A stretch of DNA of 64,000 bases from Mytilus edulis (Eukaryota): NCBI RefSeq assembly GCF_963676685.1, contig NC_092355.1:56358001-56422000 (forward strand). Direction: 5' to 3'. Below the pieces are notes generated by a model. It did not search any database and was not told the DNA's origin. It was given only the letters and a program-made list of their open reading frames with translations. Shown here one piece after another: positions 1 to 64,000 of this stretch. Each line of letters opens with the position of its first letter. The stretch's first letter is position 1. The position numbers and the translations under genes are program-made.

Positions 1-1024
1 GGGATGAGTTCAACTTCACCATTTGGAACTCTGGGTTTAATAGCTTCCTTTTGAGCAGCAACCCTCTATCAAGAAAATCATGATAGGAAATGCAAGCACG
101 GGAATATCGTATCAATTTGGAGATATATACCCCGTATGCAGGTGCTGCTGGAATGTTGCTGCTTAGAAAGGGACAGTTCACAATTGGAAAGCTGAAATCA
201 TCTCTTTTGTCGTAAAGTTTTGTTTTCAACCGACCCTGATTGTCAATTTCTAGATGTAAGTCAAGATATGAGGCCGACTTAACTGTATCTGTAGTATTCT
301 TTATCTCTAGCTCGATTGGATAGATGCGTTCCACATAGTCACCAAATGTTGAATTATTTAGCGAAAGAACATCATCTTTATATCGGAAAGTAGAGTTAAA
401 GGATATTGCTAACTTCTTATCTTTCTTCCTAGGAAGTTCCTGCATGAAGTCGGCCTCATAATAATATAGAAACAAGTCGACAAGTAGAGGGGCACAGTTT
501 GTTCCTATTGAAATGCCGACAGTCTGTTGAAAAACACGTCCTCCGAATGTAACACATATGTTGTCAATCAAGAAATCAAGCATCTTGATAATATCAGTTT
601 CAGAGAATTTTTTGTTTGAATCAGAGTGATCCTTTACAAAGTAGGATTTATCCCTCCCTAAGACAAGATACTTGTATCTACGTTGGCCATTCTTTTGTAT
701 GAAGCAAAGCAATACCAACTCTTTCAATTTTGGTTTGGAATGTGGAATAATTGTGAAAAGAGTAGAAAAGTCAAATGTTTTAAAACTGTTACAAGATGAA
801 AGAGAGTTAGATTGTATGTACTCTAAAAGATCTTTAGAATTTGTAAGAATCCACATCTGATTCACGACCCCTCTAGAATAGGCAGTTTCACAATAACTTT
901 GAAGCCCGTTTTTGATTGCTGATAAAATAGATGTTAATAATTGAGAAAGAGGTTTCATGGAGCACTTGGAAGACCCAGCTGTATACTGTTGTTTGTAAGG
1001 ACACTTATGTAGTTTAGGTATCCA
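1..1024 (-). mobile_element. Penelope-like element (PLE) reverse transcriptase, 5'-truncated, runs off the left edge
   Basis: Manual minus-strand translation gives ~341 codons with no stop: WIPKLHK...KTFDFSTLFT...FQQTVGISIGTNCAPLLVDLFL...FRYKDDVLSLNN...SASYLDLHL...LYDKRDDFSFPIVN...YGVYISKLIRYSRAC. These are PLE-type RT motifs. Probably missing from the ORF track because it has no stop inside the window. Confidence 0.9.
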
Positions 1025-1032
1025 ATTCCGTG

Positions 1033-2866
1033 ATGTGTATGTGATCAAAATAACGTCGGTTGCACTTGTTTTTTTCTAACTACAACTGTACTGAACACTA
1101 TCCTACAAAATGAAGGACACGAAACCATTTAAATGCCTGCTGCAATACAAATCATAATTTGTATGATTTCAAAACATCAGCGAACAAATTTCATTTGTTT
1201 TTAATTGTGTTATACATAGACAAGAAGAATCTATTCTTGTTATTTTGAATCTCTCTTTAGATTCTGTAAACGTTTCTAACATATTATATTTGACAGAATA
1301 CAGCTAGGCATTTTTTCGATTGAAACAATGAAATATTATCAGAGGGTTCGTGTTCTCCGTATTTAGATTTCTTTGTTGTCGTTTTTTCGACTTTAAATGT
1401 CCTTTGGTATTTTTTACTTCTCTTTTTACAATGTTTAGGAATAAAACATGTGAAATGCTACTTTCCTTTCAACATATATTAGTTATAGTGATGCATGAGA
1501 TAAAAGCTAGGAGTGATACACATAACTATGTAGCATCATACCAGCAACGCCCGAATATCTCCAAATTAATACGATATTCCCTGGCCTGTATGTCCTATCA
1601 TGATTTCCTTGATGAAGGGGTGCTGCTCACAAGGAAGCTATTAAAACAAGAGTTCCAAATCCTGAAGTTGAAATCATCTCTTTGTAAAATTTACGGACAT
1701 CATCATATGTTGGTTGACAGTTATGGAATATCCGTTTCACAGATGATATCGAATATGTTCTTTATCTCGTTGGAATAATCCTGTTCCCTTTTAACAAATA
1801 TGACCTACCGAATTAGACTATTTACCGGGTTTATTAGACTTCTATTATTTCAGTCTTACTAATTTATATGTTTACTGATGAGTGCCAGCCTACTGATTGC
1901 CCTGCAGATGTCAGTATAATTGTAATCTCCTAGTTATAGCAGTAAAATTATTAAAGGGGCAAAATTGAAAAAAAAAGAAAAAACATAATTAGGAAGGGAC
2001 ATGTAGCAAGTCGACGGGTTTATAATTACATAAATAACACCACAGGTACCACATGTTGAGCGGTTCCTACTTACTCTTCCGGAGCAACTGGGAACACTCC
2101 CTGTTTTTATGAGGTTTGTGTTGCTTAGTCTATAGTTTCTATGATGTGTCTTGTGTACTATTATTTGTCTGTTTGTCTTTTCATTTTTAACCATGTCATT
2201 GTCAATTTATTTTTTTATCTATACGTTTGACTGTCCCTCTGTATCTTTTTCTGCTCCTTTTCAGGTTATTTGTATTATAAACAAGGCCGTCGTGATGTCA
2301 CTTTTATGTTGTTACATATTTAAATTGACTTAGGAAGACTCTCCTTATAAAAATTGTTTTGCAACTAAACAATTATATATGCGAAGAAATCTTGTAACAA
2401 TGTATTTTGCTTTGCTTTACTCATAAATTTTAAGATCTAGCAAAGAGTCAAATGTGACAGATTATGCAGTTGTGCATGACATAAGGGAAGTTTGAAGACA
2501 AATGCCTGATACACAATTCAAACATACTACTGAACTTATGTTACGTGTTTTACCTACATGTTTCATGTTTTTGATGCCACATAAATATACTTATTTTACT
2601 TTTTTATTTTGTATGAGTTGCTTTTATATAATTCATCCAAATTTTCAGATTTTTAAAAGTATCTAAATATGCGGTATACCGATATCTTGTATCTAACAAA
2701 TCAAGTTAAACAAGATGTAAAAACAAATAACAAATCAGCTTTTTGAGAAACGTAAGGATACACACAAATAATATTTCCGACTAAAGGTCTCCGATATTAA
2801 ATCAAATTATCAAAATCATTCAAGACATATTGAAATCAGCATAATGTCTAAATGATGTGATTTACT
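1033..2866 (+). repeat. Segmental duplication, copy 1 (partner 51784-55102)
   Basis: Near-identical sequence from ATGTGTATGTGATCAAAATAACGTCGG to ATGATGTGATTTACT in both places, apart from insertions and indels. Confidence 0.95.
1530..2260 (+). mobile_element. PLE 3'-terminal fragment (RT C-terminus plus 3' tail), degenerate
   Basis: Encodes ISKLIRYSLACMSYHDFLDEGVLLTRKLLKQEFQILKLKSSL..YGHHHMLVDSYGISVSQMIS, homologous to the end of the RT at 1-130. It is followed by the ...TTTGTGTTGCTTAGTC...TTTGACTGTCCCTCTG tail, which recurs at about 16240, 39590, 47890 and, reversed, at 13555, 26320, 40500 and 42040. Confidence 0.85.
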
Positions 2867-4869: not shown

Positions 4870-7800
4870 AACCAATAATGTATAGGCTATTGACTTTGGA
4901 AAGGATCGTTTAAACCAATGATTCATAGGCTTATGACTTCGGAAGGATCGTTTTAACCAATGCTTTATTGGCTCATGACTTCGGAAAGGATCGTTTAAAC
5001 CAATGATTTATAGGCTCATTACTTCGGAAAGGATCGTTTAAACCAATGATTTATAGGCTCATTACTTCGGAAAGGATCGTTTAAACCAATGATTTATAGG
5101 CTCAGGAATTTGGAAAGAATCGCTTAAATTAATGAATTATAGGGTCATTACTTCGGAAAGGATCGTTTAAACCAATGATTTATAGGCTCATGACTTCAGA
5201 AAGGTTAAAATAAAACAAATGATTTATAGGCTCATGAATTCGGAAAGAATCGTTAAAACCAATGATTTATAGGCTCATGACTTCGGAAAGAATCGTTTAA
5301 ACCAATGATTTATAGGCTCATGAATTTGGAAAGAATCAATTAAACAAATGATTTATAGGCTCATGAATTTGGAAAGAATCGTTTAAACCAATGACTTATA
5401 GGCTCATGACTTCGGAAAGAATCGTTCAAACCAATGATTTATAGGCTCATGACTTCGGAGAGGATCGTTTAAACCAATGATTTATAGGCTCATGAATTCG
5501 GAAAGGATCGTTTTAACCAATGATTCATAGGCTTATGACTTCGGAAAGGATCGTTTTAACCAATGCTTTATAGGCTCATGACTTCGGAAAGGATCGTTTC
5601 AACCAATGATTTATAGGCTCATGCCTTCGGAAAAGATTGTTTAAACCAATGATTTATAGGCTTATGACTCCGGAAAGGATCGTTTAAATCAATGATTTAT
5701 AGGCTCATAACTTCGGAAAGGATCGTGTTAACCAATGATTTATAGGCTCATGACTTCGGAAAAGATCGTTTAAACCAATGATTTATAGGCTTATGACTTC
5801 GGAAAAGATCGTTTAAACCAATGACTTATAGGCTCAAGACTTCGGAAAGGATTGTTTAAACCAATGATGTATAGGCTCATGACTTCGGAAAGGATCGCTT
5901 AAACCAATTTTTTATAGGCTCATGACTTCGGAGAGGATCGTTTAAACCAATGATTTATAGGCTCATGGCTTCGGAAAGGATCGTTTAAACCAATGATGTA
6001 TAGGCTCATGACTTCGGAAAGGATCGCTAAAACCAATGATTTATAGGGTCATGACTTCGGAAAGGACCGTTTTAACCAATGATTTATAGGCTCATGACTT
6101 CGGAAAGGATTGTTTAAACCAATGATTTATAGGGTCATGACTTCGGAAAGGATCGTTGAAACCAATGATTTATAGGCTCATGACTTCGGAAAGGATCGTT
6201 TTAACCAATGATTTATAGGCTCATGACTTCGGAGAGGATCATTTTAACCAAGGATTTATAGGCTCATGACTTCGGAAAGGATCGTTTAAACCAATGATTT
6301 ATAGACTCATGACTTCCGAGAGGATCGTTTTAACCAATGATTTTTAGGCTCATGACTTCGGAAAGGATCGTTTAAACCAATGATTTATAGGGTCATGACT
6401 TCGGAAAGGACCGTTTTAACCAATGATTTATAGGCTCATGACTTCGGAAAGGATCGTTTAAACCAATGATTTATAGGCTCATGACTTCGGAAAGGATTGT
6501 TTAAACCAATGACTTATAGGCTCATGACTTCGGAAAGGATAGTTTAAACCAATGATTTTTAGGCTCATGACTTCGGAAAGGATCGTTTTAACCAATAATT
6601 TATAGGCTCATGACTTCGGAAAGGATTGTTTAAACCAATGACTTATAGGCTCATGACTTCGGAAAGGATCGTTTAAACCAATGATTTATAGGCTCATGAC
6701 TTCGGAGAGGATCGTTTTAACCAATGATTTATAGGCTCATGACTTCGGAAAGGATCGTTTAAACCAATGATTTATAGGGTCATGACTTCGGAAAGGATCG
6801 TTTAAACCAATGATTTATAGGCTCATGACTTCGGAAAGGATCGTTTTAACCAATGATTTATAGGCTCATGACTTCGGAGAGGATCATTTTAACCAATGAT
6901 TTATAGGCTCATGACTTCGGAAAGGATCGTTTAAACCAATGATTTATAGACTCATGACTTCGGAAAGGATCGTTTTAACCAATGATTTATAGGCTCATGA
7001 CTTCCGAGAGGATCGTTTTAACCAATGATTTTTAGGCTCATGACTTCGGAAAGGATCGTTTAAACCAATGATGATTTTTAGGCTCATGACTTCGGAAAGG
7101 ATCGTTTAAACCAATGACTTATAGGCTCATGACTTCGGAAAGGATTGTTTTAACCAATGATTTATAGGCTCATGACTTCGGAAAGGATCGTTTAAACCAA
7201 TGATTTATAGGCTCATGACTTCGGAAAGGATCGTTTTAACCAATGATTTATAGGCTCATGACTTCGGAAAGGATCGTTTAAACCAATGACTTATAGGCTC
7301 ATGACTTCGGAAAGGATTGTTTTAACCAATGATTTATAGGCTCATGACTTCGGAAAGGATCGTGTAAACCAATGACTTATAGGCTCATGACTTCGGAAAA
7401 GATCGTTTAAACCAATGACTTATAGGCTCATGACTTCGGAAAGGATCGTTTAAACCAATGATTTTTAGGCTCATGACTTCGGAAAGGATCGTTTAAACCA
7501 ATGACTTATAGGCTCATGACTTCGGAAAAGATCGTTTAAACCAATGATGTTTAGGCTTATGACTTCGGAAAGGACCGTTTTAACCAATGATTTATTAGCT
7601 CTTGACTTCGGAAAAGATCGTTTTAACCAATGATTTATAGGCTTATGAATTCGGAAAAGATCAATTAAACCAATGACTTATAGGCTCATGACTTTGGAAA
7701 GGATCGTTTTAACCAATGATTTATAGGCTCATGACTTCGGAAAAGATCGTTTTAACCAATGATTTATAGGCTTATGAATTCGGAAAAGATCAATTAAACC

Positions 7801-8315
7801 AATGACTTATAGGCTCATGACTTTGGAAAGGATCGTTTTAACCAATGATGTATAGGCTCATGACTTCGGAAAAGATCGTTTTAACCAATGATTTATAGGC
7901 TTATGAATTCGAAAAAGATCGTTTTAACCAATGATTTATAGGCTGATGAATTCGGAAAAGATCAATTAAACCAATGACTTATAGGCTCATGACTTTGGAA
8001 AGGATCGTTTTAACCAATGATTTATAGGCTCATGACTTCGGAAAGGATCGTTTTAACCAATGATTTATAGGGTCATGACTTCGGAAAGTACTGTTTGAAC
8101 CAATGATTCATAGGCTCATGACTTCGGAAAGGATTGTTTAAACCAATAATGTATAAGCTCATGACTTTGGAAAGGATCGCTTAAACCAATTTTTTATAGG
8201 CTCATGACTTCGGAAAGGATCGTTTAAACCAATGACTTATAGGCTCATGACTTCGGAAAGGATCGTTTAAACCAATGATTTATAGGCTCATGGCTTCGGA
8301 AAGGATCGTTTTAAA
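4870..8315. repeat. 43-bp tandem satellite, about 80 copies
   Basis: Consensus ATGACTTCGGAAAGGATCGTTTAAACCAATGATTTATAGGCTC repeated head-to-tail with point variants and no unique spacers. Confidence 0.98.
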
Positions 8316-9469
8316 CAAATTATTAAGAAAAGAAATGCATACACAATTAACTATCGTCTGATCATTGGTCCTTTCAGATAAATTTATTTTGAAATGTGTA
8401 AAGGAATCAATGGTTAATAAATGTCATGCAAATTTGGCATTATCTTAATATTTATTTTTTAAGGAGAAAACTAACAACCTGATTTATATTCAACAGTTGT
8501 AGAAAAATATAAAACGTACTTCAACCAAGACAATAGCTAAATAGCAGGCGCCTGGTTTGTGACAGACATCTACGCAATGCAAGGGTGTTTCACAAGTTTT
8601 TGAGCACTAAACCCTCCCCATTGCCTATGACAATGATGTAACAACGGAACTTAAAAAAAACAACAACATTAAACGTCAGGTGGAAACGTCTTGACTGATC
8701 ATATAAGAACGAATCCCAACAAAAACTATTATGAAAAATATAAAAAAAAACACAACTGGTACTTACGGCTACAAAAATATATCTAATAAACCAATATCAA
8801 CTTAACTTTCTCTAAGGCTTATGTAAATATTAGTTTGCATGTAATGTTATACAGTCTTTGCATTCATGATTTCATTTAGCTTCAAGCCGTTAATTGCGAA
8901 GATCACTGATCTTTCATTTTACATTCTTTATAGAAACAATAACACTCATATTTACACCTGTTTGTCTATAGATTCTCCTAAAATCGATAAAACTAAATAT
9001 TTCACCATCCTTAATTTTCATATTTAAGAAGGAGTGGCGTTGGGTACTTCATTTTAACCACCGAAAAATGAAAAAAAAACACTATTGAAATTCTTGTTTG
9101 TCATTTTATCGTGATGTTAGTCTTTTGTTCTATCGGTAGATTATCTTCTGTGAATCTACTGACTACTTTATTCAATAAATATCACTTATATTATAAATTT
9201 TACCATCGGATCTGTAGTCCTCTACAAATGAGTTCCATATGAAGGGCCAGCACTCAGGCGTTTTTCATCATAAATCATTACAGTCTTATGCCTTCTGACG
9301 ATTGGTGGCCATCATTTGTGATTGATTTGTCACGTTTGGTCAAACAACGGTATGCGCATACGATAAACTATAAGGAATTCATCAAATAAAAATACCCAGA
9401 AAAACAAACATACGGTGCTGTACAAAACTATGTGCCTGTCAAAAAACGCTGATTTAAATTAATCTGTTA

Positions 9470-15094: not shown

Positions 15095-18000
15095 TTAACA
15101 CATGACATTTTTCAATGACCGCTTTATTATTGCATGTAGAGACGTAGTCTTAAACTATCAGACTATTGTTTCTAGAAATTAATGTAATAGTTATAGATAG
15201 ATAACTAAGACAAAACGAAGGATGGGTAAGTAGTGATTATTGTTAATGTCTTTGTCGGGTCAAACATTTGTTTAGACAAACAGTCAGAGATGTTGGACAT
15301 CGCGCACGATGATTCATTGACAAATTAATTTCACTTATTATTAACCATATGTACATTAACAACTCTAATGTCATTAAAGACAAAATTGTAATCCGGCCGT
15401 AAAACGTTTATTTCCCGGGGGACGTTAAAATTGTTATTTTGAATATATAATGAATACATTTGTAATATTCAATGCAGAAATTGTTCGATTCTGATTTTTA
15501 GACAAACAATCATTTGAAAGTTTCAGATGAACACTTAAACCTAACGAAACGTTACTAGCATTCAGAAAAAGAATTTAACATAAATCAAAACTGATTACGT
15601 AATACCCAGTACGACGGCAAATGTTCTTGTAGTACATAATTAATACCAGGTAATTTAGCGGAAACAGGTCTATTTCATCAACTTTCGTAAAAGTAGGTAA
15701 ATAATTCATGTATTGTTGTATAAAGTAATTTCATGCTGTGGTATGTTACATGGATTTACTATTTGACGTCAGTTTCGATAAAGACAACTTACAACATGTT
15801 AGGGGGACGTAGCTTTATGTCCGGTAGTGTAATACATATTAATCAACATGCTAGTATATGTATATAAAACAAATGACATAGTTGATGACAACTTTGTTAT
15901 TGCATGCAGAGTCTTAGACTCTTAAACTATAGTTTCCAGAAGCCAATGCAATACATTTATTATTCAGACAAAGCAAAAGACGGGTCTCTAGGGATTGCTG
16001 TGTCTGTGTTTATCGTTAATCAAATCAGGTGTGTCAGAGTTATTTATTGCGTACGATTACGTCTCCTTGACAATATGTGTCACTTTGAACTGAGAAGACA
16101 CATACTATTATTCGACGGAAATTAAACGGATTCTCGGGGGACGTTCAATTTGCTACTGTTTGTATATATAATGGCAGTTTTAAATGTGTTTTCTTGTGAA
16201 TCTTTTGCATTCGGCCTTCACAGTTTTTGTCAATTTATTCCCTTTTCACGAATGTGACATACTGAATTATCTATTTCCCTGAGTTGATCTTACATAAGCA
16301 ACACGACGGGTTCCACATATGGAACAGGATGATCTGCTTTCTCTTCCAAGCACTCGAGGTCACCCCCAGTTTATGGTGAAGTTCGTGTTGCTCAGTCTTT
16401 AGATTTTCTATGTTGTTTCTTGTGTACTAATATTTGTCTGTCTGTCTTTTTTTCATTTCTGCCATGGCGTTGACAGTTTATTTTCGATTGATGAGATTGA
16501 CCTTTCCTCTGGTATCTTTCGCCCCTCTTTTCGTCAGACAAACACCTATTTGTTTGTTTTGTATGAAAGCATTAATGAAACAATACACTACTTGTATTTC
16601 GAAAAACCAATATAGGTTGATTCAAAACAGTTATATTTTCTCTACAAAATTTCCTTCAAGTAAAAAATAAATTAACACATGACATTTTTCAATGACCGCT
16701 TTATTATTGCATGTAGAGACGTAGTCTTAAACTATCAGACTATTGTTCTAGAAATTAATGTAATAGTTATAGATACATAACTAAGACAAAACGAAGGATG
16801 GGTATGTAATGATTATTGTTAATGTCTTTGTCGGGTCAAACATTTGTTTAGACAAACAGTCAGAGATGTAAGACATCGCGCACGATGATTCATTGACAAA
16901 TTAATTTCACTTATTATTAACCATATGTACATAAACAACTCTAATTGCATTAAAGACAAAATTTTAATCCGGCCGTAATACGTTTATTACCCGGGGGACG
17001 TTGAAATTATATTTTGAATATATAATGAATACATTTGTAATATTCAATGCAGAAATTGTTAAATTCTGATTTTTAGACAAACAATCATTTGAAAGTTTCA
17101 GATGAACACTTAAACCTAACGAAACGTTACTAGCATTCAGAAAAATAATTTAACATAAATCAAAACTGATTACGTAATACCCAGTACGACGAAAATGTTC
17201 TTGTAGTAAATAATTAATACCAGGTAATTTAGCGGAATTAAGTCTATTTCATCAACTTTCGTAAAAGTAGGTAAATAATTCATGTATTGTTGTATAAAGT
17301 AATTTCATGCTGTGGTATGTTACATGGATTTACAATTTGACGTCAGTTTCGATAAAGACAACTTACAACATGTTAGGGGGACGTACCGTTATGTCTGGTA
17401 GTGTAATACATATTAATCAACATGTTACTACATGTATATAAAACAAATGACATAGTTGATGACAACTTTGTTATTGCATGCAGAGTCTTAGACTCTTAAA
17501 CTATAGTTTCCAGAAGCCAATGCAATACATTTATTATTCAGACAAAGCAAAAGACGGGTCTCTAGGGATTGCTGTGTCTGTGTTTATCGTTAATCAAATC
17601 AGGTGTGTCAGTGTTATTTATTGCGCACGAATACGTCTACTTGACAATATATGTCACTTTGAACTGAGAAGACACATACTATTATTCGACGGAAATTAAA
17701 CGGATTCTCGGGGGACGTTCAATTTGCTACTGTTTGTATATATAATGGCAGTTTTAAATGTGTTTTCTTGTGAATCTTTTGCATTCGGCCTTCACAGTTT
17801 TTGTCAATTTATTCCCTTTTCACGAATGTGACATACTGAATTATCTATTTCCCTGAGTTGATCTTACATAAGCAACACGACGGGTTCCACATATGGAACA
17901 GGATGATCTGCTTTCTCTTCAAAGCACTCGAGGTCACCTCCAGTTTATGGTGAAGTTCGTGTTGCTCAGTCTTTAGATTTTCTATGTTGTTTCTTGTGTA

Positions 18001-19855
18001 CTAATATTTGTCTGTCTGTCTTTTTTCATTTCTGCCATGGCGTTGACAGTTTATTTTCGATTGATGAGATTGACCTTTCCTCTGGTATCTTTCGCCCCTC
18101 TTTTCGTCAGACAAACACCTATTTGTTTGTTTTGTATGAAAGCATTAATGAAACAATACACTACTTGTATTTCGAAAAACCAATATAGGTTGATTCAAAA
18201 CAATTATATTTTCTCTACAAAATTTCCTTCAAGTAAAAAATAAAGTAACACATGACATTTTTCAATGACCGCTTTATTATTGCATGTAGAGACGTAGTCT
18301 TAAACTATCAGACTATTGTTTCTAGAAATTAATGTAATAGTTATAGATACATAACTAAGACAAAACGAAGGATGGGTATGTAATGATTATTGTTAATGTC
18401 TTTGTCGGGTCAAACATTTGTTTAGACAAACAGTCAGAGATGTAAGACATCGCGCACGATGATTCATTGACAAATTAATTTCACTTATTATTAACCATAT
18501 GTACATAAACAACTCTAATTTCATTAAAGACAAAATTTTAATCCGGCCGTAATACGTTTATTACCCGGGGGACGTTGAAATTATCTTTTGAATATATAAT
18601 GAATACATTTGTAATATTCAATGCAGAAATTGTTAAATTCTGATTTTTAGACAAACAATCATTTGAAAGTTTCAGATGAACACTTAAACCTAACGAAACG
18701 TTACTAGCATTCAGAAAAATAATTTAACATAAATCAAAACTGATTACGTAATACCCAGTACGACGAAAATGTTCTTGTAGTAAATAATTAATACCAGGTA
18801 ATTTAGCGGAATTAAGTCTATTTCATCAACTTTCGTAAAAGTAGGTAAATAATTCATGTATTGTTGTATAAAGTAATTTCATGCTGTGGTATGTTACATG
18901 GATTTACAATTTGACGTCAGTTTCGATAAAGACAACTTACAACATGTTAGGGGGAAGTACCTTTATGTCTGGTAGTGTAATACATATTAATCAACATGTT
19001 ACTACATGTATATAAAACAAATGACATAGTTGATGACAACTTTGTTATTGCATGCAGAGTCTTAGACTCTTAAACTATAGTTTCCAGAAGCCAATACAAT
19101 ACATTTATTATTCAGACAAAGCAAAATACGGGTCTCTAGGGATTGCTGTGTCTGTGTTTATCGTTAATCAAATCAGGTGTGTCAGCGTTATTTATTGCGC
19201 ACGATTACGTCTCCTTGACAATATATGTCACTTTGAACTGAGAAGACACAGACTATTATTTGACGGAAATTAAACGGATTCTCGGGGGACGTTCAATTTG
19301 CTACTGTTTGTATATTTACTGAATATGTGTTAATTTCCGACTGTTCTGATTGTTTTCCTAGCGGAATAATGGCAGTTTTAAATGTATTTTCTTGTGAATT
19401 GTTTGCATTCGGCCTTTACAGTTTTTGTCAGTTTATTCCCTTTTCACGAATGTGACATACCAAATTATCTATTTCCCTGATTTGATCTTATATAAGCAAC
19501 ACGACGGGTTCCACATATAAAACAGGTTAATCTGCTTCCCCTTCCAAGCACCCGAGGTCAACCCCAGTTTTTGGTGGAGTTCGTGTTGCTCAGTCTTTAG
19601 ATTTTCTATGTTGTTCCTTGTGTACTAATATTTGTCTGTCTGTCTTTTTTCATTTCTGCCATGGCGTTGTCAGTTTGAGATTGAATTTTCCTCTGGTATC
19701 TTTCGTCCCCCTTTTCGTCAGACAAACACCTGATTGTATGTTTTGTATGAAAGCATTAATGAAACAATACACTACTTGTATTTCGAAAAACCAATATAGG
19801 TTGATTCAAAACAGTTATGTTTTCTCGACAAAATTTCCTTCGAGTAAAAAATAAA
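15095..19855. repeat. Tandem triplication of a ~1.57-kb unit
   Basis: Units start at about 15095, 16672 and 18246 (TAACACATGACATTTTTCAATG). Homologous ORF starts at 15904, 17478 and 19052 are 1574 apart. Each unit contains a PLE tail fragment. Confidence 0.97.
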
Positions 19856-48699: not shown

Positions 48700-49290
48700 T
48701 TTATTGGAAGCAATATAGTATCAATCATGGTCTTCGTCTTATAGATTATTTCTCTATTTTCAAGTATTACAAACGAGCTATTTATTATTTTGACTTTTAG
48801 TTGTACATTTGTATCTTGCATTCGTTTTTATAAAGCAAATATTAATTTCATTGTTACCTTGTTGCTAAAATGAAGTGGAAGCAATATACTTTCAATCATT
48901 GTCACCTTCTTATAGATCAATTCTCTATTTTCAAGTATTCCTAACGAACTATTTATTTTTTTAACATTTCCTCAAGACCTTTAATTGTATCAATCATTTG
49001 TTTTGTAAAATAAGGAGGGCTAGTTAACTACATTGTTACCTTTGTGACACTAAAATAGAGTGGAAGCAATATACTTTTAATCATTGTCACCTATTTATAG
49101 ATAATTTCTCTATTTTCAAGTATTACAAACAATCTATTAATTATTGTGACATTTCGTCAAGACGTTTTATTGTATCTTTCAATCATCATTTTAAAAAGAA
49201 AAGCCTAGTTAATTGCCTTGTTACCATTGTGACAATTAAATGAAGCGGAGGCAATATATTATCAATCTTTGTCACCTTTTTGAAAAATAT
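48700..49290. repeat. Diverged tandem repeat, ~170-185-bp unit, about 3.3 copies
   Basis: GGAAGCAATATA...CAATCATTGTCACC motif at about 48705, 48877, 49061 and 49246. Confidence 0.85.
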
Positions 49291-49789: not shown

Positions 49790-50070
49790 TGCAGACCTAT
49801 CGACGGGTCTGCTCCAGACCAGACCTGTGGATAGGTCTGTTCCTGACCAGACCTGTGGACAGGTCTGTTCCTGACCAGACCTGTGGACAGGTCTGCTTCT
49901 AACCAGACCTGTGGACAAGTCTGCTATTGACCAGATTTGTGGACAGATCTGCTTCTGACCAGACCTGTGAACAGGTCTACTTCTGACCAGACCTGTGAAC
50001 AGGTCTGCTTCTGAACAGACCTGTGGGCAAGTCTGCTATTGACTAGACCTGGAAACAGGTCTGCTTATGA
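49790..50070. repeat. 28-bp tandem array of palindromic units, about 10 copies
   Basis: Unit CCAGACCTGTGGACAGGTCTGTTCCTGA, containing the inverted repeat CAGACCTGT-gg-ACAGGTCTG. Confidence 0.92.
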
Positions 50071-57988: not shown

Positions 57989-59141
57989 ATCCCAACCTGC
58001 GGAGAAGCTAACTCAAGGTGAAAGGTTAAATTTCATTATTCATTTAATATTTAACAATTGAAAATCTTGAACAGCAACGTATCAACATGTTGTAATATCG
58101 TGTAGTCGACCGTTGATCTTTTATAACAGATAGCAACGCGTTTTTCTGTAAGAGAAACAGTTAAAAAAAATTTGTTCTCAATAAATTGCTAACGAATCAT
58201 TCAGCAATCCTCTATCTCAATAATGTGTGTCACTCTTACGTTTTAAATTGTGTCACTTTCTCATTCTTACTTCCGGTTCATGTTACTTTCTCACTCTCAC
58301 TTCCGGTTTATATCACTTTCTCATTCATACTTCCGGTTCATGTCTCTTTATCATTCTTACTTCCGGTTCATGTCACTTTCTCATGCTTACTTCCGGTTCA
58401 TGTCACTTTTTCATTCTTACTTCCGGTTCATGTCACTGTTTCATTCTTACTTCCGGTTCATGTCTCTTTATCATTCTTACTTCTGGTTCATGCGACTTTC
58501 TCATTCTTACTTCCAGTTCATGTCACTTTCTCATTCTTACTTCCGGTTCATGTCAATTTCTCATTATCCCAACCTGCGGAGAAGCTAACTCAAGGTGAAA
58601 GGTTAAATTTCATTATTCGTTTAATATTTAGCAATTGAAAATCTTGAACAGCAACGTATCAACATGTTGTAATATCGTGTAGTCGACCGTTGATCTTTTA
58701 TAACAGATAGCAACGCGTTTTCCTGTAAGAGAAACAGTAAACAAAAATTGTTGTTCTCAATAAATTGCTTACGAATCATTCAGCAATCCTCTGTCTCAAT
58801 AATGTGTCACTCCTTCGTTAGAATTGTGTCACTTTCTCACTTTTACTTCCGGTTCATGTTACTTTCTCACTCTTATTTCCGGTTCATGTCTATTTATCAT
58901 TCACACTTCCGGTTTATGTCTATTTATCATTCTTACTTCCGGTTCATGTCACTTTCTCATGCTTACTTCCGGTTAATGTCACTTTATCATTCCTACTTCC
59001 GGTTCATGTCACTTTTTAATTCTAACTTCCGGTTCATGTCACTTTATCATTCTTACTTCCGGTTCATGTCACTTTCTCATTCTTACTTCCGGTTCATGTC
59101 ACTTTCTCATTCTTACTTCCGGTTCATGTCAATTTCTCATT
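57989..59141. repeat. ~577-bp tandem duplication, each unit ending in about ten 30-bp repeats (putative PLA2 3' UTR)
   Basis: ATCCCAACCTGCGGAGAAG at 57989 and 58566. Minisatellite TCATTCTTACTTCCGGTTCATGTCACTTTC at 58250-58565 and 58826-59141. Confidence 0.95.
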
Positions 59142-59271
59142 TGTGTATCATTGCAATATGTCTTACTGTCGGTCTTCCATTTTTCGTTATATTCGTGTTT
59201 AACATCTGACAAACAGATTGCTGCCTCTTTATCACATCTACAGAAATTTAATTTACAAGGATCACTGTCAT
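59129..59271 (-). CDS. Secreted phospholipase A2-like gene, last coding exon
   Basis: Acceptor tttgttacag, phase 1. Encodes (H)DSDPCKLNFCRCDKEAAICLSDVKHEYNEKWKTDSKTYCNDTQMRN*. CxCDxxAAxC is the Asp99 motif. Confidence 0.93.
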
Positions 59272-60130
59272 CTGTAACAAACAAAAAATGAAATGTACTT
59301 AAAGCGACGAATAAATCACGTGACTAAAAGAAGCCACGTGACTAATTGATGCGTAAGGTACTCATTGTTACGTGTTCTATTTTTGGCAAAATTATACAAC
59401 ATAACGTTGTATTTTTGAATGGTTGTACAGCTGCTTGTCGGGATTTTACTGGAGTAGTAAAGCATACATATAAGACAACTCTCTATCAAAATTGCAATGT
59501 ATTAAGAGTAAACAATTATAGGTCAAAGTACGGCATTCAACACAGATCAGTAGATGTTACATGTATATATAAGAAACTCGGATTCGGTTTTCGATTTTGT
59601 GTCCTTTTTCTGATATTCATGTACGAATCTAAAATGGTTTGTTGCAATTTACAATCTCACAACACTCATAGAATGTGTCCTTCTACTTCACACCTTGACT
59701 TGCACACTTGGCTATGCCAAATCAATAATATGTAGCTGAGTAAGTTCAGATGTCAACAGTCAACACAAAATTCGATATTCCGTTAGTTTTCTCTATTGAA
59801 TGGTTTTACATTTGTCATTTCGGGGCTTTTTATAGCTAACTATTCGAAATTGGCTTTGCTCATTGTTGGAGGCCGTACGGTAACCTAAAGTTGTTAATTT
59901 ATGTGTCATTTGTCCTCTTATGGATAGTTGTCTCGTCGGAAATCTTACATATTTTCTTTTTTTATAAATGTAAAAAACATCAAATGCACCTCCAAAAGTA
60001 TTTTTAGATCTATATCTGAAGCATAGAACAAGAACATCGTGAACAACTGAATTCAAAAATATTTGTTCCGTACCAGAAAACAGAACAAAAGTACTCGAAT
60101 TAATAAAAGCTAATTAGGGCTAAATGCATT

Positions 60131-60285
60131 GGCGGATCCAGGGGGAAAAGGGGGGGTGGTTTCCAAGGGTTGGAACCCTCCCCTTTTTTGCCGATCAATG
60201 CATTTGAATGGGGACATATAGTTGGACCCCCCCTTTTTTTGTCCTGGGTTAGGGAATCCCCGCTTTGTAAAATGTTGGATCCGCT
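60131..60285. mobile_element. Short GC-rich MITE in the PLA2 intron
   Basis: TIRs GGCGGATCCA / TGGATCCGCT. Confidence 0.7.
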
Positions 60286-60449
60286 CCTAAAATATATGTA
60301 TATAGTGACCTTATACGGATATCGATGCTGACAGTAGCAAGACTTATTGCTTTGTCTCTATTCTTTACTTTTAAATTATCGATCATATTTTAAACAAATC
60401 AGTTGTGTTCATATGTGTGTGTGTCTTACGAATGCAGAGATGTACTTAC

Positions 60450-60559
60450 GACAGGTAATTGTTTTCAAAAAACAAGTTCCATACGAGTAATATCGAGATG
60501 AATGCGGGCATTTCTTGGCAAAAATATTTCGAAGGCACATATGGTGTTGCCAACAGCAT
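60450..60559 (-). CDS. Secreted phospholipase A2-like gene, active-site exon
   Basis: Acceptor tttttag, donor gtaagt, phases 2/1. Encodes (R)CCWQHHMCLRNIFAKKCPHSSRYYSYGTCFLKTITC. Confidence 0.93.
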
Positions 60560-60814
60560 CTAAAAATAAAATTATAAGCTGATATTCAACCATGGTCATT
60601 TTTACAAATGTTTTCCACATTTATACTTCCAAAAGTCAATCGCTGATTGTTCTGTTTCAAAATTAGTTTTAAACAAAATTAATATTACTGCGACTGCAGA
60701 GTCTTACATTTACATAGGCAGGCTTTAAAATACAAAATGCTTCAAAGTATTGCAGTCAAAAGTCTTTGTAACATCGTCTCCCATTTACTAAATGTTATGT
60801 GAAGATGGATTGCA

Positions 60815-61500
60815 GCTTAACGTCCAGTGGCAAGCTAATATGCATATTCAGGACGATAACACGTTCATGTAATATGAATATTAAACGTGCTTTGTACTAA
60901 AACCAACAAACCGAGACGGACTTTCAATTTGCCAGTCCGCATAGGTCATCTTGCTCGGAAACATTGTCCTCTTACTCGGAAAAATTGTCATCTTACTCCG
61001 GAAACATTGTCATCTTACTCGGAAACATTGTAATCTTACTCGGAAACATTGTCATCTTACTCGGAAACATTGTAATCTTACTCGGAAACATTGTCATCTT
61101 ACTCGGAAACATTGTAATCTTACTCGGAAACATTGTATTGTCATCTTACTCGGAAACATTGTCATCTTACTCGGAAACATTGTCATCTTACTCGGAAACA
61201 TTGTCATCTTACTCGGAAACATTGTCATCTTACTCGGAAACATTGTAATCTTACTCGGAAACATTGTCATCTTACTCCGGAAACATTGCCATCTTACTCG
61301 GAAACATTGTAATCTTACTCGGAAACATTGTCATCTTTCTCGGAAACATTGTCATCTTACTCGGAAACATTATTTTGACACTTTTATCTTACTTCTTTAA
61401 GGTGCGGAGAAGCAGCAAATAACAATTTTAAAGTCTTTGGATTCACCCGGTCCGGGCCTATGACATCCCATACTGGAGGCAAACAAGCTACATGTACCAC
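60815..61500 (-). mobile_element. Decayed tRNA-SINE (Meta-domain-like) containing an expanded minisatellite
   Basis: Minus strand reads CCAAAGACTTTAAAATTGTTATTTGCTGCTTCTCCGC...ATAATGTTTCCGAGTAAG...ATGCGGACTG...TTGGTTTTAGTACAAAGC. Domain name assigned from memory. Confidence 0.6.
60945..61372. repeat. 21-bp minisatellite, about 20 copies
   Basis: CATTGTCATCTTACTCGGAAA tandem. Confidence 0.97.
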
Positions 61501-61634
61501 GAGAACATCGAGGGAGTGAAAGGCATGTGAAACTTAAGCTTACACATGTGAGATGTTATTTCAATAACAACAACAAATATAAGGCAAACTCAGTTTTAGA
61601 TCATTTTGAATTAATGTAAAAGTTCAAAAATTAC

Positions 61635-61773
61635 CTGTCTAATTTGTCAACGGACATACCATTTCCTGTCTGCCCGCACCAACATCCATATCCGTTCAAG
61701 TCGTCAGCAAAATATACGTCTCCTGTCTTTGCTTTTAATAGGAAATGAATCCGGTATATATCGTGAAGATCAT
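61635..61773 (-). CDS. Secreted phospholipase A2-like gene, Ca2+-loop exon
   Basis: Acceptor ctttatag, donor gtaatt, phases 1/2. Encodes DLHDIYRIHFLLKAKTGDVYFADDLNGYGCWCGQTGNGMSVDKLD(R). YGCxCG..G.G..VD.LDR is the sPLA2 signature, and the frames join correctly across all three exons. Confidence 0.93.
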
Positions 61774-61870
61774 CTATAAAGATAGAAACATATAATTTTC
61801 TAAAATAGATGTTTTACAACTTTTCTCCTTGTCAACCTTAGCATTCACAAACACGAGCCAATTGGACAAA

Positions 61871-62484
61871 GGAGTAGGTCCGGTAAGCACCGATTTTGGC
61901 CTCAAAGGAGTAGGTCCGGTAAGGACCGATTTTGGCCTCAAATTTCAGGTTCATCTGACGAAAGATTTTGACCACTTTTTAAACACTTAAGTGTCTATTT
62001 TATTTGTATCAATTACTTTATGTGAACGATTTTAACAGATTTAATCATTAAAAACGATCCGATTCAAGCTCAAATATGAAAAATCTACCTAATATGCCGA
62101 AAAATGTCACTTTTCAGATGGTTTTTGGTAAAAATGAAAGTGGTCGCATCCGTGTTCATCCTCAACCTTTTTATATGTTATGTATTATCATAAAATACAC
62201 CTTACATTTCAATATTAAGGATGAACACGAATGCGGTCACTTTTGTTTTACACGAAAACCGTCTAAAATTTAACTAAAATGCTAGAATTGTGAAGATTTC
62301 AGTAATTTAGCATGACTTAATGATGCTAGTACCCGATATATGTGCATTGTATTGTCAAAACCTACCCATATGTATGTAGCAGAAGCATTCTACTGTCTAA
62401 TAAATAACTTAAAGTTTACATTTTAACAATTTTGTAAAACTACTATATTTTGGGGCCAAAAAGGGGTCTTACTGGACCTACTCC
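61871..62484. mobile_element. Spy-type MITE (61907-62484) preceded by a 36-bp copy of its own 5' end
   Basis: AAA|GGAGTAGGTCCGGTAAG occurs twice (61871, 61907) and ends CTTACTGGACCTACTCC|TTT. Same family as 53089-53666. Confidence 0.9.
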
Positions 62485-62502
62485 TTTCGTAAGCAAGGGA
62501 AC

Positions 62503-62618
62503 TGGTCCCTGTTTCACAAAAACAACTAGTCACTAAAATTGATCGTATTTAAGTATACTGCATTGTTCATAACTTAATGTCAATCTTAGTTGTAAGTTTT
62601 TTTGTGAAACCGACTCAG
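62503..62618. mobile_element. Short MITE remnant
   Basis: Inverted repeats GTTTCACAAAAA / TTTTTGTGAAAC. Confidence 0.55.
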
Positions 62619-62871
62619 GACGCTTTTCTTGCCATTCCTAATCTCTAATATCGGGCAAGGAGTTCAGTGTGAAGCAAAAATACTCACTTCTTTACAAGCA
62701 CTGGTTTTATATGAATGATTTGCTACCTGTCGTTTATGCTGTATCGTGCATGCCCTTTAAGAGGGTTTGGATGGGGTTTATATAATACAAAATAATTGGA
62801 TAAATATGCAGAATAAAAAGCTAAATAAAAGAATAGTGGAAAATCGATGTTTATGTATAATCTTATATTAC

Positions 62872-62919
62872 CTTGCGTGGATTCTATTTTAATATTGTAA
62901 GACACAATATCCATAACAT
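62872..62919 (-). CDS. Candidate signal-peptide exon of the PLA2-like gene (needs +1 A)
   Basis: ATG TTA TGG ATA TTG TGT CTT ACA ATA TTA AAA TAG...CGCAAG|gtaata. One more A in the A4 run gives MLWILCLTILKIESTQ with a phase-1 donor that matches the next exon. Confidence 0.4.
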
Positions 62920-63129
62920 GCTGCAACCATGTAACTCTAACATCCCCTTTCAGTATAGCTACGTTGTATGAAAAGAAAAATGATACAAACGTTAATATGA
63001 CAGGTCTTAGAAAGGTGTACTCATGTTTTTTATCCTGCTCTTAACAAATTATTTTGCAAGTTATAGGTTTTTTTCTTTAATTAAGGTCTTTCCTTTTTCT
63101 ATAAGGAAAGACCTTACTGTATTTCTTCT

Positions 63130-64000
63130 GTTTATTATTATTCTTTTTCCGCCAAACTTTGACGAAGTTAGCAGCCTAAACCGTAAGACGTGTCGCTTTC
63201 ATGTTCTCACTTTGTATCGGTGTCATGAATACCTATCCGGAACTCACCCTGTTAGTCGAAATATTTTGTCGGTTCGGAGTAATCCCTCCGAAACCAAAAA
63301 ACCTTGTTATCGTTCCAACACCGTAACCGTAATAGATAGAAAAAAAACGAAGGGTGAAATTTGTTCAGGACCAGACCCCGGTTCTTCGTTACATTTGATT
63401 CGAAAAGATTCAACGACTCATTGGTAGGGTTATGCCCCTTTGAAAATTAACCGGTGTCGGTGGACCACCAAAACTCAGAAACCGTAAATCGTAGAGACCT
63501 AGGATCTTCACCATTCATCAACAATTCATGAGACTTTCAAAAATACCTCAAGGTCAAATGTGTATGTTGACCTTGACCTTTGACCTAACACCTTGTTATC
63601 AGAACAACTCAAAAACTATTATACTTACAGAAGTTTTAAATAGTGGAAAATGTTTGGGTCATTACGGCGCAACTTTGTTATATTTTGACCGAAGAGATTT
63701 GACCTTTTTTTAAGGGGCATAACACCTGTTTTAGGTTTCTGGAAAGACAAAATCATCTTTTACTATATAACCAAAGGTCCTAGACCCATGGGGTCTTCGG
63801 CAATGACATTGGGGACTAATGACCTTGACAAAGGTCAAAAGGTCAAAGGTCAAGGGTCATGTCCCATATAGCGAATTTGGTGTTTTTAACCTTATTTAAA
63901 GGTTTTTCAGTGTGTTTTAAAGCTTTTTAATACATTCTACGTCTATTTGAACATGTATTTTACATTACAAAAGGAAAGACCTCTCAATTGTTCAAGAACA
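63130..64000. mobile_element. Interspersed repeat with TGACCTTGACCTTTGACC / AAGGTCAAAGGTCAAGG motifs (Helentron-like), runs off the edge
   Basis: GGTCAA/TTGACC-rich motifs at 63550-63590 and 63820-63860, typical of bivalve non-autonomous elements. Confidence 0.55.

Follow-up and report, generated by a model that had tools for sequence, protein, structure and literature searches.

The window analysed here, a stretch of 64,000 nucleotides of the Mytilus edulis genome (contig NC_092355.1, positions 56,358,001 to 56,422,000), carries on its minus strand a spliced gene for a protein predicted to have the secreted phospholipase A2 (sPLA2) fold, in which the calcium ligand Asp49 is replaced by histidine. 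We somewhat favour the explanation that this gene encodes a predicted secreted pseudo-enzyme of the PLA2 fold, which would act by binding and is likely anchored by a disulfide to a partner or matrix. An earlier note on the same DNA had described three of its exons and proposed a remodelled metal site.

Active site and fold

PLA2 residues were numbered by alignment to pancreatic PLA2. As the earlier note had it, His48 is encoded by CAC at 60546-60544 and His49 by CAT at 60543-60541, and Thr32 (ACA at 61669-61667) and Leu52 (60534-60532) could also be read from the sequence, whereas position 28 is Trp (codon 61681-61679) and not Tyr. The His48/Asp99 dyad of active sPLA2s (Asp99 being GAT at 59233-59231) is present together with Tyr73 (equivalent codon 60489-60487), whereas the Asp49 calcium ligand is absent and neither Tyr52 nor the Y28-C-G30-x-G32 loop is kept, with Leu52, Trp28 and Thr32 found there beside Gly30. 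Trp28 alone is not decisive, since it is found in His-Asp PLA2 paralogs of the same genome too.

The calcium ion of PLA2 is bound by the Asp49 carboxylate and by the backbone carbonyls of residues 28, 30 and 32, and the substitution D49K abolishes both calcium binding and activity, while D49E still binds calcium yet is inactive (PMC10150362). Because Asp49 supplies the carboxylate ligand and both substitutions abolish activity, its loss would be the decisive change, and ordinary Ca-dependent catalysis appears unlikely, as had been proposed. The idea of three coordinated substitutions was not supported: residue 32 binds calcium via its backbone carbonyl, so that no side-chain ligand is lost with Thr32, and the clade of related proteins has Thr, Asn or Pro there.

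The predicted fold, with three helices and a beta-wing, and the conserved disulfide frame place the protein in the sPLA2 fold family (PF00068). Taken singly, the three first-noted exons match PF00068 with E 6e-5, 0.057 and 1.3e-4, all below the curated cut-off, and phmmer gave E 5e-16 to a pancreatic-type PLA2. The model of an ortholog shows a confident sPLA2 fold (mean pLDDT 80) with a low-confidence N-terminal extension, and in a Foldseek search against the PDB the listed matches (ranks 1-50) were all sPLA2-family chains, with a best E of 2.6e-8 and TM (target) of 0.74-0.85 for the matches listed. Its Atlas matches were generic PLA2 clusters (0.92). The mussel protein therefore resembles group I/II/V/X sPLA2s in fold, in the six canonical disulfide positions and in His48, Tyr73 and Asp99, and differs from them in His49, Leu52, Trp28, Thr32 and one extra unpaired Cys.

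Thirteen cysteines lie in the domain. When it is aligned to pancreatic PLA2, twelve of them make up the usual six pairs, and the thirteenth (codon 60474-60472) matches group I Cys77. Its partner Cys11 is absent, position 11 not being Cys, and the protein thus lacks the Cys11-Cys77 bond of group I sPLA2s. The same number was counted in seven of seven proteins, two divergent unnamed members of the clade included, and in the cores of three paralogs, which points to a disulfide scaffold with one spare Cys. The intact frame described in the earlier note stood, and its disulfide scaffold has to be amended by that residue. A conserved unpaired Cys of secreted proteins usually joins chains.

According to the explanation that we favour, a protein with no Asp49 carboxylate would bind no catalytic Ca2+, and its hydrolysis would be lost or minimal, with His49 as one of several tolerated polar fillers. 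The kept hydrophobic channel positions and the His48/Asp99/Tyr73 core would still allow an acyl chain to be held or the protein to dock on a surface of lipid or matrix. Lacking its Cys11 partner, the Cys77 equivalent would form an inter-chain disulfide, and the protein would act as a scaffold outside the cell, in the manner of otoconins.

Gene structure and splicing

The three minus-strand exons of the earlier note (61773-61635, 60559-60450 and 59271-59129) have AG acceptors and GT at the two internal donors, and their splice reads in frame for 130 aa plus a stop, which bears out the three in-phase GT-AG exons and the placing of the two His codons. The gene is not complete in these three exons, since two more coding exons precede them, and the full Mytilus gene has five coding exons, an open reading frame (ORF) of 540 nt and a product of 179 aa.

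Exons 1 and 2 were located via the N-terminus of the M. galloprovincialis ortholog. Coding exon 1 (minus strand, G000:C12:56423768-56423708) lies outside the window, about 1.7 kb past its end, and was placed by tblastn (80% over 20 aa), an ATG start and a phase-1 GT donor; its peptide, aa 1-20, is signal-like and, to judge by its hydrophobicity, would act as a signal. Coding exon 2 (62872..62958, minus strand) encodes an N-terminal extension, aa 21-49, with AG/GT borders, in frame and 83% identical to the ortholog, in the model of which pLDDT is below 50 for aa 26-48. Coding exon 3 (61635..61773) carries the N-terminal helix and the Ca-loop region, coding exon 4 (60450..60559) carries the codons from His48 to the spare Cys, and coding exon 5 (59129..59271), placed by sequence and run contigs, carries Asp99, the C-terminus and the stop TGA at 59131-59129. 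The His-Asp paralogs of this genome share the same exon layout, but most of them have a dibasic site before the mature start, which is absent from the 29-aa N-terminal extension of the mussel protein.

Evidence for splicing came from contigs of four runs (four studies), presumed to be RNA and placed on window positions 58700-64000; these are four of 15 RNA-like runs with a small share, the other 11 not being counted as evidence. The earlier note had suggested that RNA be mapped across the junctions, and joints with CT..AC ends that skip introns exactly were indeed found: 60559/61635 in contigs of three of the four runs, 59271/60450 in those of two, and 61773/62872 in those of two with a near-identical joint in a third. 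The last of these indicates the extra exon that had been overlooked. One 701-nt contig spans all three first-noted exons.

Two other start codons were considered and rejected: the ATG at 61773 is out of frame, and for the in-frame ATG at 62914 the longer ORF with the signal-like exon fits the orthologs. NCBI lists 96-aa isoforms of both orthologs (P0002 and P0003), which end at the exon 3 donor and are perhaps intron-retention models.

Two tandem repeats found by TRF touch the gene. A noncoding 21-bp repeat of 20 copies (60945..61371) lies within the exon 3/exon 4 intron and is bypassed by the 60559/61635 joint, and a 30-bp repeat of 10.5 copies (58827..59141) covers the last codons and the stop, as the sequence also shows by itself, and extends into the 3' flank. 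A second 10.5-copy block of this 30-bp minisatellite was found at 58251-58565, and an unnamed predicted protein, P0007, continues reading through the repeat at 58827-59141.

Orthologs, paralogs and selection

Searching with exon 3 led to an M. galloprovincialis protein of 179 aa, whose cluster includes a member from M. trossulus. These orthologs, XP_076083540.1 (M. galloprovincialis, 162/179 identical) and XP_063406392.1 (M. trossulus, 156/179), both have the His48-His49 pair and Thr32, with Leu or Ile at position 52, so that His49 is common to three assemblies. They bear the automatic NCBI name 'phospholipase A2-like', which does not flag the lost calcium ligand.

Three close paralogs with His48-Gln49 and an A-Q-N-G loop lie about 4.2 Mb off on the same contig, making four genes of the clade in this genome. 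They are near-identical tandem copies with Ala30, at G000:C12:52.12, 52.15 and 52.17 Mb (L002-L004 and L018-L025). The middle one has an in-frame stop in its exon 1 (L021:2899-2943), and for that reason it may be a pseudogene or may use another start codon.

Profile searches extended the clade by Gln49 proteins from M. coruscus and M. californianus and by the unnamed P0023 (Asn49, 47% identical) and P0024 (Arg49, 36% identical). In a HMMER scan of 1.84 billion representatives, five members of the clade scored above 160 bits and three fragments (P0088, P0102 and P0007) were also listed, the remainder of the best 150 matches being apparently other PLA2-fold proteins. Alignment A2 contains 13 rows of the clade, nine of which have Gln at position 49, two His, one Asn, one Arg and none Asp; at position 52 they carry Leu, Ile or Phe, Tyr52 being lost clade-wide. 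All nine full clade rows agree in His48, Asp99, the Tyr73 equivalent and each of the 13 cysteines. Judged from these alignments, the common trait of the clade is the loss of Asp49 and not the His-His pair. His and Asn are one base from Asp in the genetic code, and Gln and Arg are one base from His; such single-base steps fit drift among polar fillers after the loss of the Ca site.

In each of two quick trees the clade sits on a long branch with 99* support, separate from the ordinary PLA2 expansion of this genome. Both trees are based on about 135 columns, active-site columns included; the first holds 81 domains and is subsampled (45 of 125 Asp49 domains; 12 of 41 and 8 of 33 otoconin-like ones), the second holds 52 rows, with four of the 16 genes of this genome left out for having no third exon, and the tree label 'mytilid' covers the two unnamed proteins besides the Mytilus ones.

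Between the gene and its three paralogs, dN/dS was 0.19-0.22 over 125 codons, a rough figure because dS (1.4-1.7) is near saturation, while the three Gln49 paralogs show only 4-8 differences among themselves, too few for dN/dS to be interpreted. The gene is under purifying selection and not decaying, as judged by orthologs that keep His48-His49 and a dN/dS of about 0.2. The earlier note had proposed aligning bivalve orthologs and estimating dN/dS; Mytilus orthologs were compared and dN/dS was taken against the paralogs, and the HD..Y orthologs, missing transcripts and dN/dS near 1 that it had named as speaking against its claim were not what was found, since the orthologs have His48-His49 and contigs are spliced.

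Among 29 distinct PLA2 active-site exons of this genome (one spurious motif match having been removed from 30 listed, and the loci retrieved being a lower bound on family size), 25 are His-Asp, one His-Glu, two His-Gln and one His-His, which indicates that ordinary PLA2 enzymes are plentiful. The His48-Glu49 exon, L082 (G000:C7:66005500-66012000), sits inside a C7 cluster that is otherwise His-Asp, and in view of the D49E result it is likely inactive too. Two divergent His-Asp genes, L092 and L093 (G000:C5:46.60 and 46.45 Mb), have a Y-G-N-Y-C-G loop and a very long branch. A further copy, L007 (G000:C13:65608846-65608911), has an in-frame stop in its Ca loop and Phe52, adjoins an intact copy, and is likely a pseudogene.

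Resemblance to otoconins

Among the representatives that scored next best, many are long proteins with two domains, both lacking Asp49. Of 25 examined, 16 have His-Gln and six His-His in domain 2, which always carries Leu, Ile or Met at position 52 and mostly a G-Q-x-G loop; the median pI of the 25 is 5.08. Although the records are unnamed, we take these proteins to be probably otoconin-90, on the grounds of two domains, lost catalysis, acidity and sequence. The mussel protein resembles their domain 2 in His48-[His/Gln]49, in the aliphatic residue 52 and in its G-Q-T-G loop, and since His-His with Leu52 occurs there, this combination is not unprecedented. According to previous studies, Oc90 belongs to the sPLA2 family (PMC10886416) and is a non-catalytic two-domain sPLA2-like matrix protein with a pI of 4.5; in otoconin-90/22 catalysis was lost via active-site substitutions (PMC3105080), and the mussel protein likewise has a substituted sPLA2-like domain. 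Unlike otoconin-90/22, which are proteins of the vertebrate inner ear, it is single-domain and near-neutral (pI 7.6), not strongly acidic.

Orthology to otoconin-90 was without support in the two quick trees. The branch joining the mussel clade to the otoconin-like domains reached 79, unstarred and with other rows inside, and in the second tree the otoconin-like domains formed their own group (90), with the mussel clade nearer to four unnamed proteins, three of them His-Asp (86, unstarred). His/Gln49 and Leu52 are thus likely shared with otoconin-90-like domain 2 by convergence, more than by orthology. A bolder and rather speculative extension is that mussels evolved an otoconin-like protein of their own, independently of vertebrates, in which a dead PLA2 with a convergent His48-[His/Gln]49-Leu52 would be cross-linked by its spare cysteine into a shell, statocyst or byssus matrix.

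Several points weigh against a binding pseudo-enzyme of a matrix. Otoconins are acidic (4.5, with the look-alikes at a median of 5.08) and the mussel protein is not, so that a role in a CaCO3 matrix is not directly transferable, and one comparison of shell proteomes reported PLA2-like proteins for Nautilus and Lottia but for none of the other conchiferans compared (PMC8700984). The invariance of His48, Asp99 and Tyr73 could mean residual chemistry, and single-turnover cleavage by Lys49 proteins has been discussed (PMC10150362). The disulfide pairing comes from alignment and not from model coordinates, the runs are guessed to be RNA and their contigs carry no expression level, and the near-saturated dS counts here as well.

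Alternative explanations

One alternative, which we consider unlikely, is an effector in mussel mucosa or haemolymph that would damage membranes or kill bacteria without catalysis, comparable to Lys49 proteins. Non-Asp49 PLA2 homologs of snakes (Lys, Ser, Arg, Asn or Gln) exist, and the Lys49 ones work without catalysis via a cationic, hydrophobic C-terminal region (PMC5727668). The viperid Lys49/Ser49/Arg49/Asn49/Gln49 proteins resemble the mussel protein in that Asp49 is replaced while His48/Asp99 and the fold are kept, and the Gln49 paralogs are triplicated in this genome, with a cationic tail in P0005 (K+R 7 versus D+E 1). The His49 copy, in contrast, has a net charge of +1.4 at pH 7 and its ortholog a mixed-charge tail (K+R 6, D+E 5), without the strongly cationic surface of Lys49-type myotoxins, and the membrane-damaging role considered in the earlier note is not supported for this copy. 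The pI computed from residue 21 on ranges from 5.9 to 8.5 across six other clade members, so cationic character is not conserved. The mussel protein is also not of group II (no Cys50, methionine at 50) and has lost Tyr52 as well. Mussels are not known to have a venom apparatus, and their loss of Asp49 probably arose independently of that in vipers.

Improbable to a similar degree is a weak or Ca-independent esterase, or an inactive subunit that would modulate an active His-Asp PLA2 in a heterodimer. In its favour, His48, Asp99 and Tyr73 are invariant, the genome has at least 25 His-Asp active-site exons, and the spare Cys could join subunits in the manner of the S-S link of beta-bungarotoxin (PMC5727668). 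However, even D49E is inactive (PMC10150362), Tyr52 is lost clade-wide, Gly30 is Ala or Ser in Gln49 paralogs, and the His-Asp genes of this genome in the second tree were seen by eye to have no Cys at the 77-equivalent.

A Zn or Cu site formed by His48-His49 in place of the Ca site, in a metal-swapped hydrolase or a metal-binding protein, had been put forward in the earlier note and is very doubtful. Residues 48 and 49 face the same pocket in PLA2s, as is generally known, and His49 is kept in the gene and both orthologs; moreover, structure 4wtb, by its title, is of a Lys49 homolog complexed with Zn. If the His-His pair were a dedicated metal site, it would be expected to be fixed, whereas in the clade rows His49 is outnumbered by Gln, Asn and Arg, and His and Gln also switch in the otoconin-like domains; the site is therefore poorly supported, and we rejected it as the defining trait of the clade. 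When two His of a helix chelate a single ion, their spacing is usually i, i+3 or i+4, whereas these are adjacent (i, i+1) on helix 93-110 of the ortholog model, with Leu at position 52, and the other His conserved across the clade (aa 59) corresponds in the alignment to residue 6, in the N-terminal helix.

That the gene is a decaying duplicate under relaxed selection is hardly credible, because, although the gene family is large and dynamic and in-frame stops occur in L007 and in the first exon of L021, its 540-nt ORF is intact, its contigs are spliced, two species have orthologs of full length and dN/dS is about 0.2, on which grounds we rejected a pseudogene.

Other features of the window

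A scan of the window for long ORFs revealed no other clear host gene, so the neighbourhood gives no functional clue. A 358-codon open frame at 2-1075 (minus strand) resembles, by eye and from its motif, a retroelement reverse-transcriptase fragment. A 43-bp tandem array of 80 copies occupies 4870-8316, further tandem arrays lie at 48865-49278 and 49792-50065, and a unit of about 1.57 kb is present three times at about 15889-19851, as shown by open frames that recur at 15889, 17463 and 19037.

Significance

Non-catalytic proteins of the sPLA2 fold are already known from viper venoms and vertebrate otoconia, the former including the non-Asp49/Lys49 homologs of snake venoms (PMC5727668), and the His-His pair is not the special feature here. 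In a search of literature titles and abstracts, with most subscription journals and supplements outside it and much byssus and shell proteomics likely among these, no description of this clade or of any non-Asp49 PLA2 in mussels was found, and proteomics supplements could list the clade already. The present analysis adds an apparently undescribed clade, named so far in five Mytilus species only, which is mis-described by automatic 'phospholipase A2' names, is under purifying selection and has a conserved spare cysteine. Should the protein prove to belong to a matrix, it would clearly exemplify how the PLA2 fold has been recruited more than once as a scaffold.

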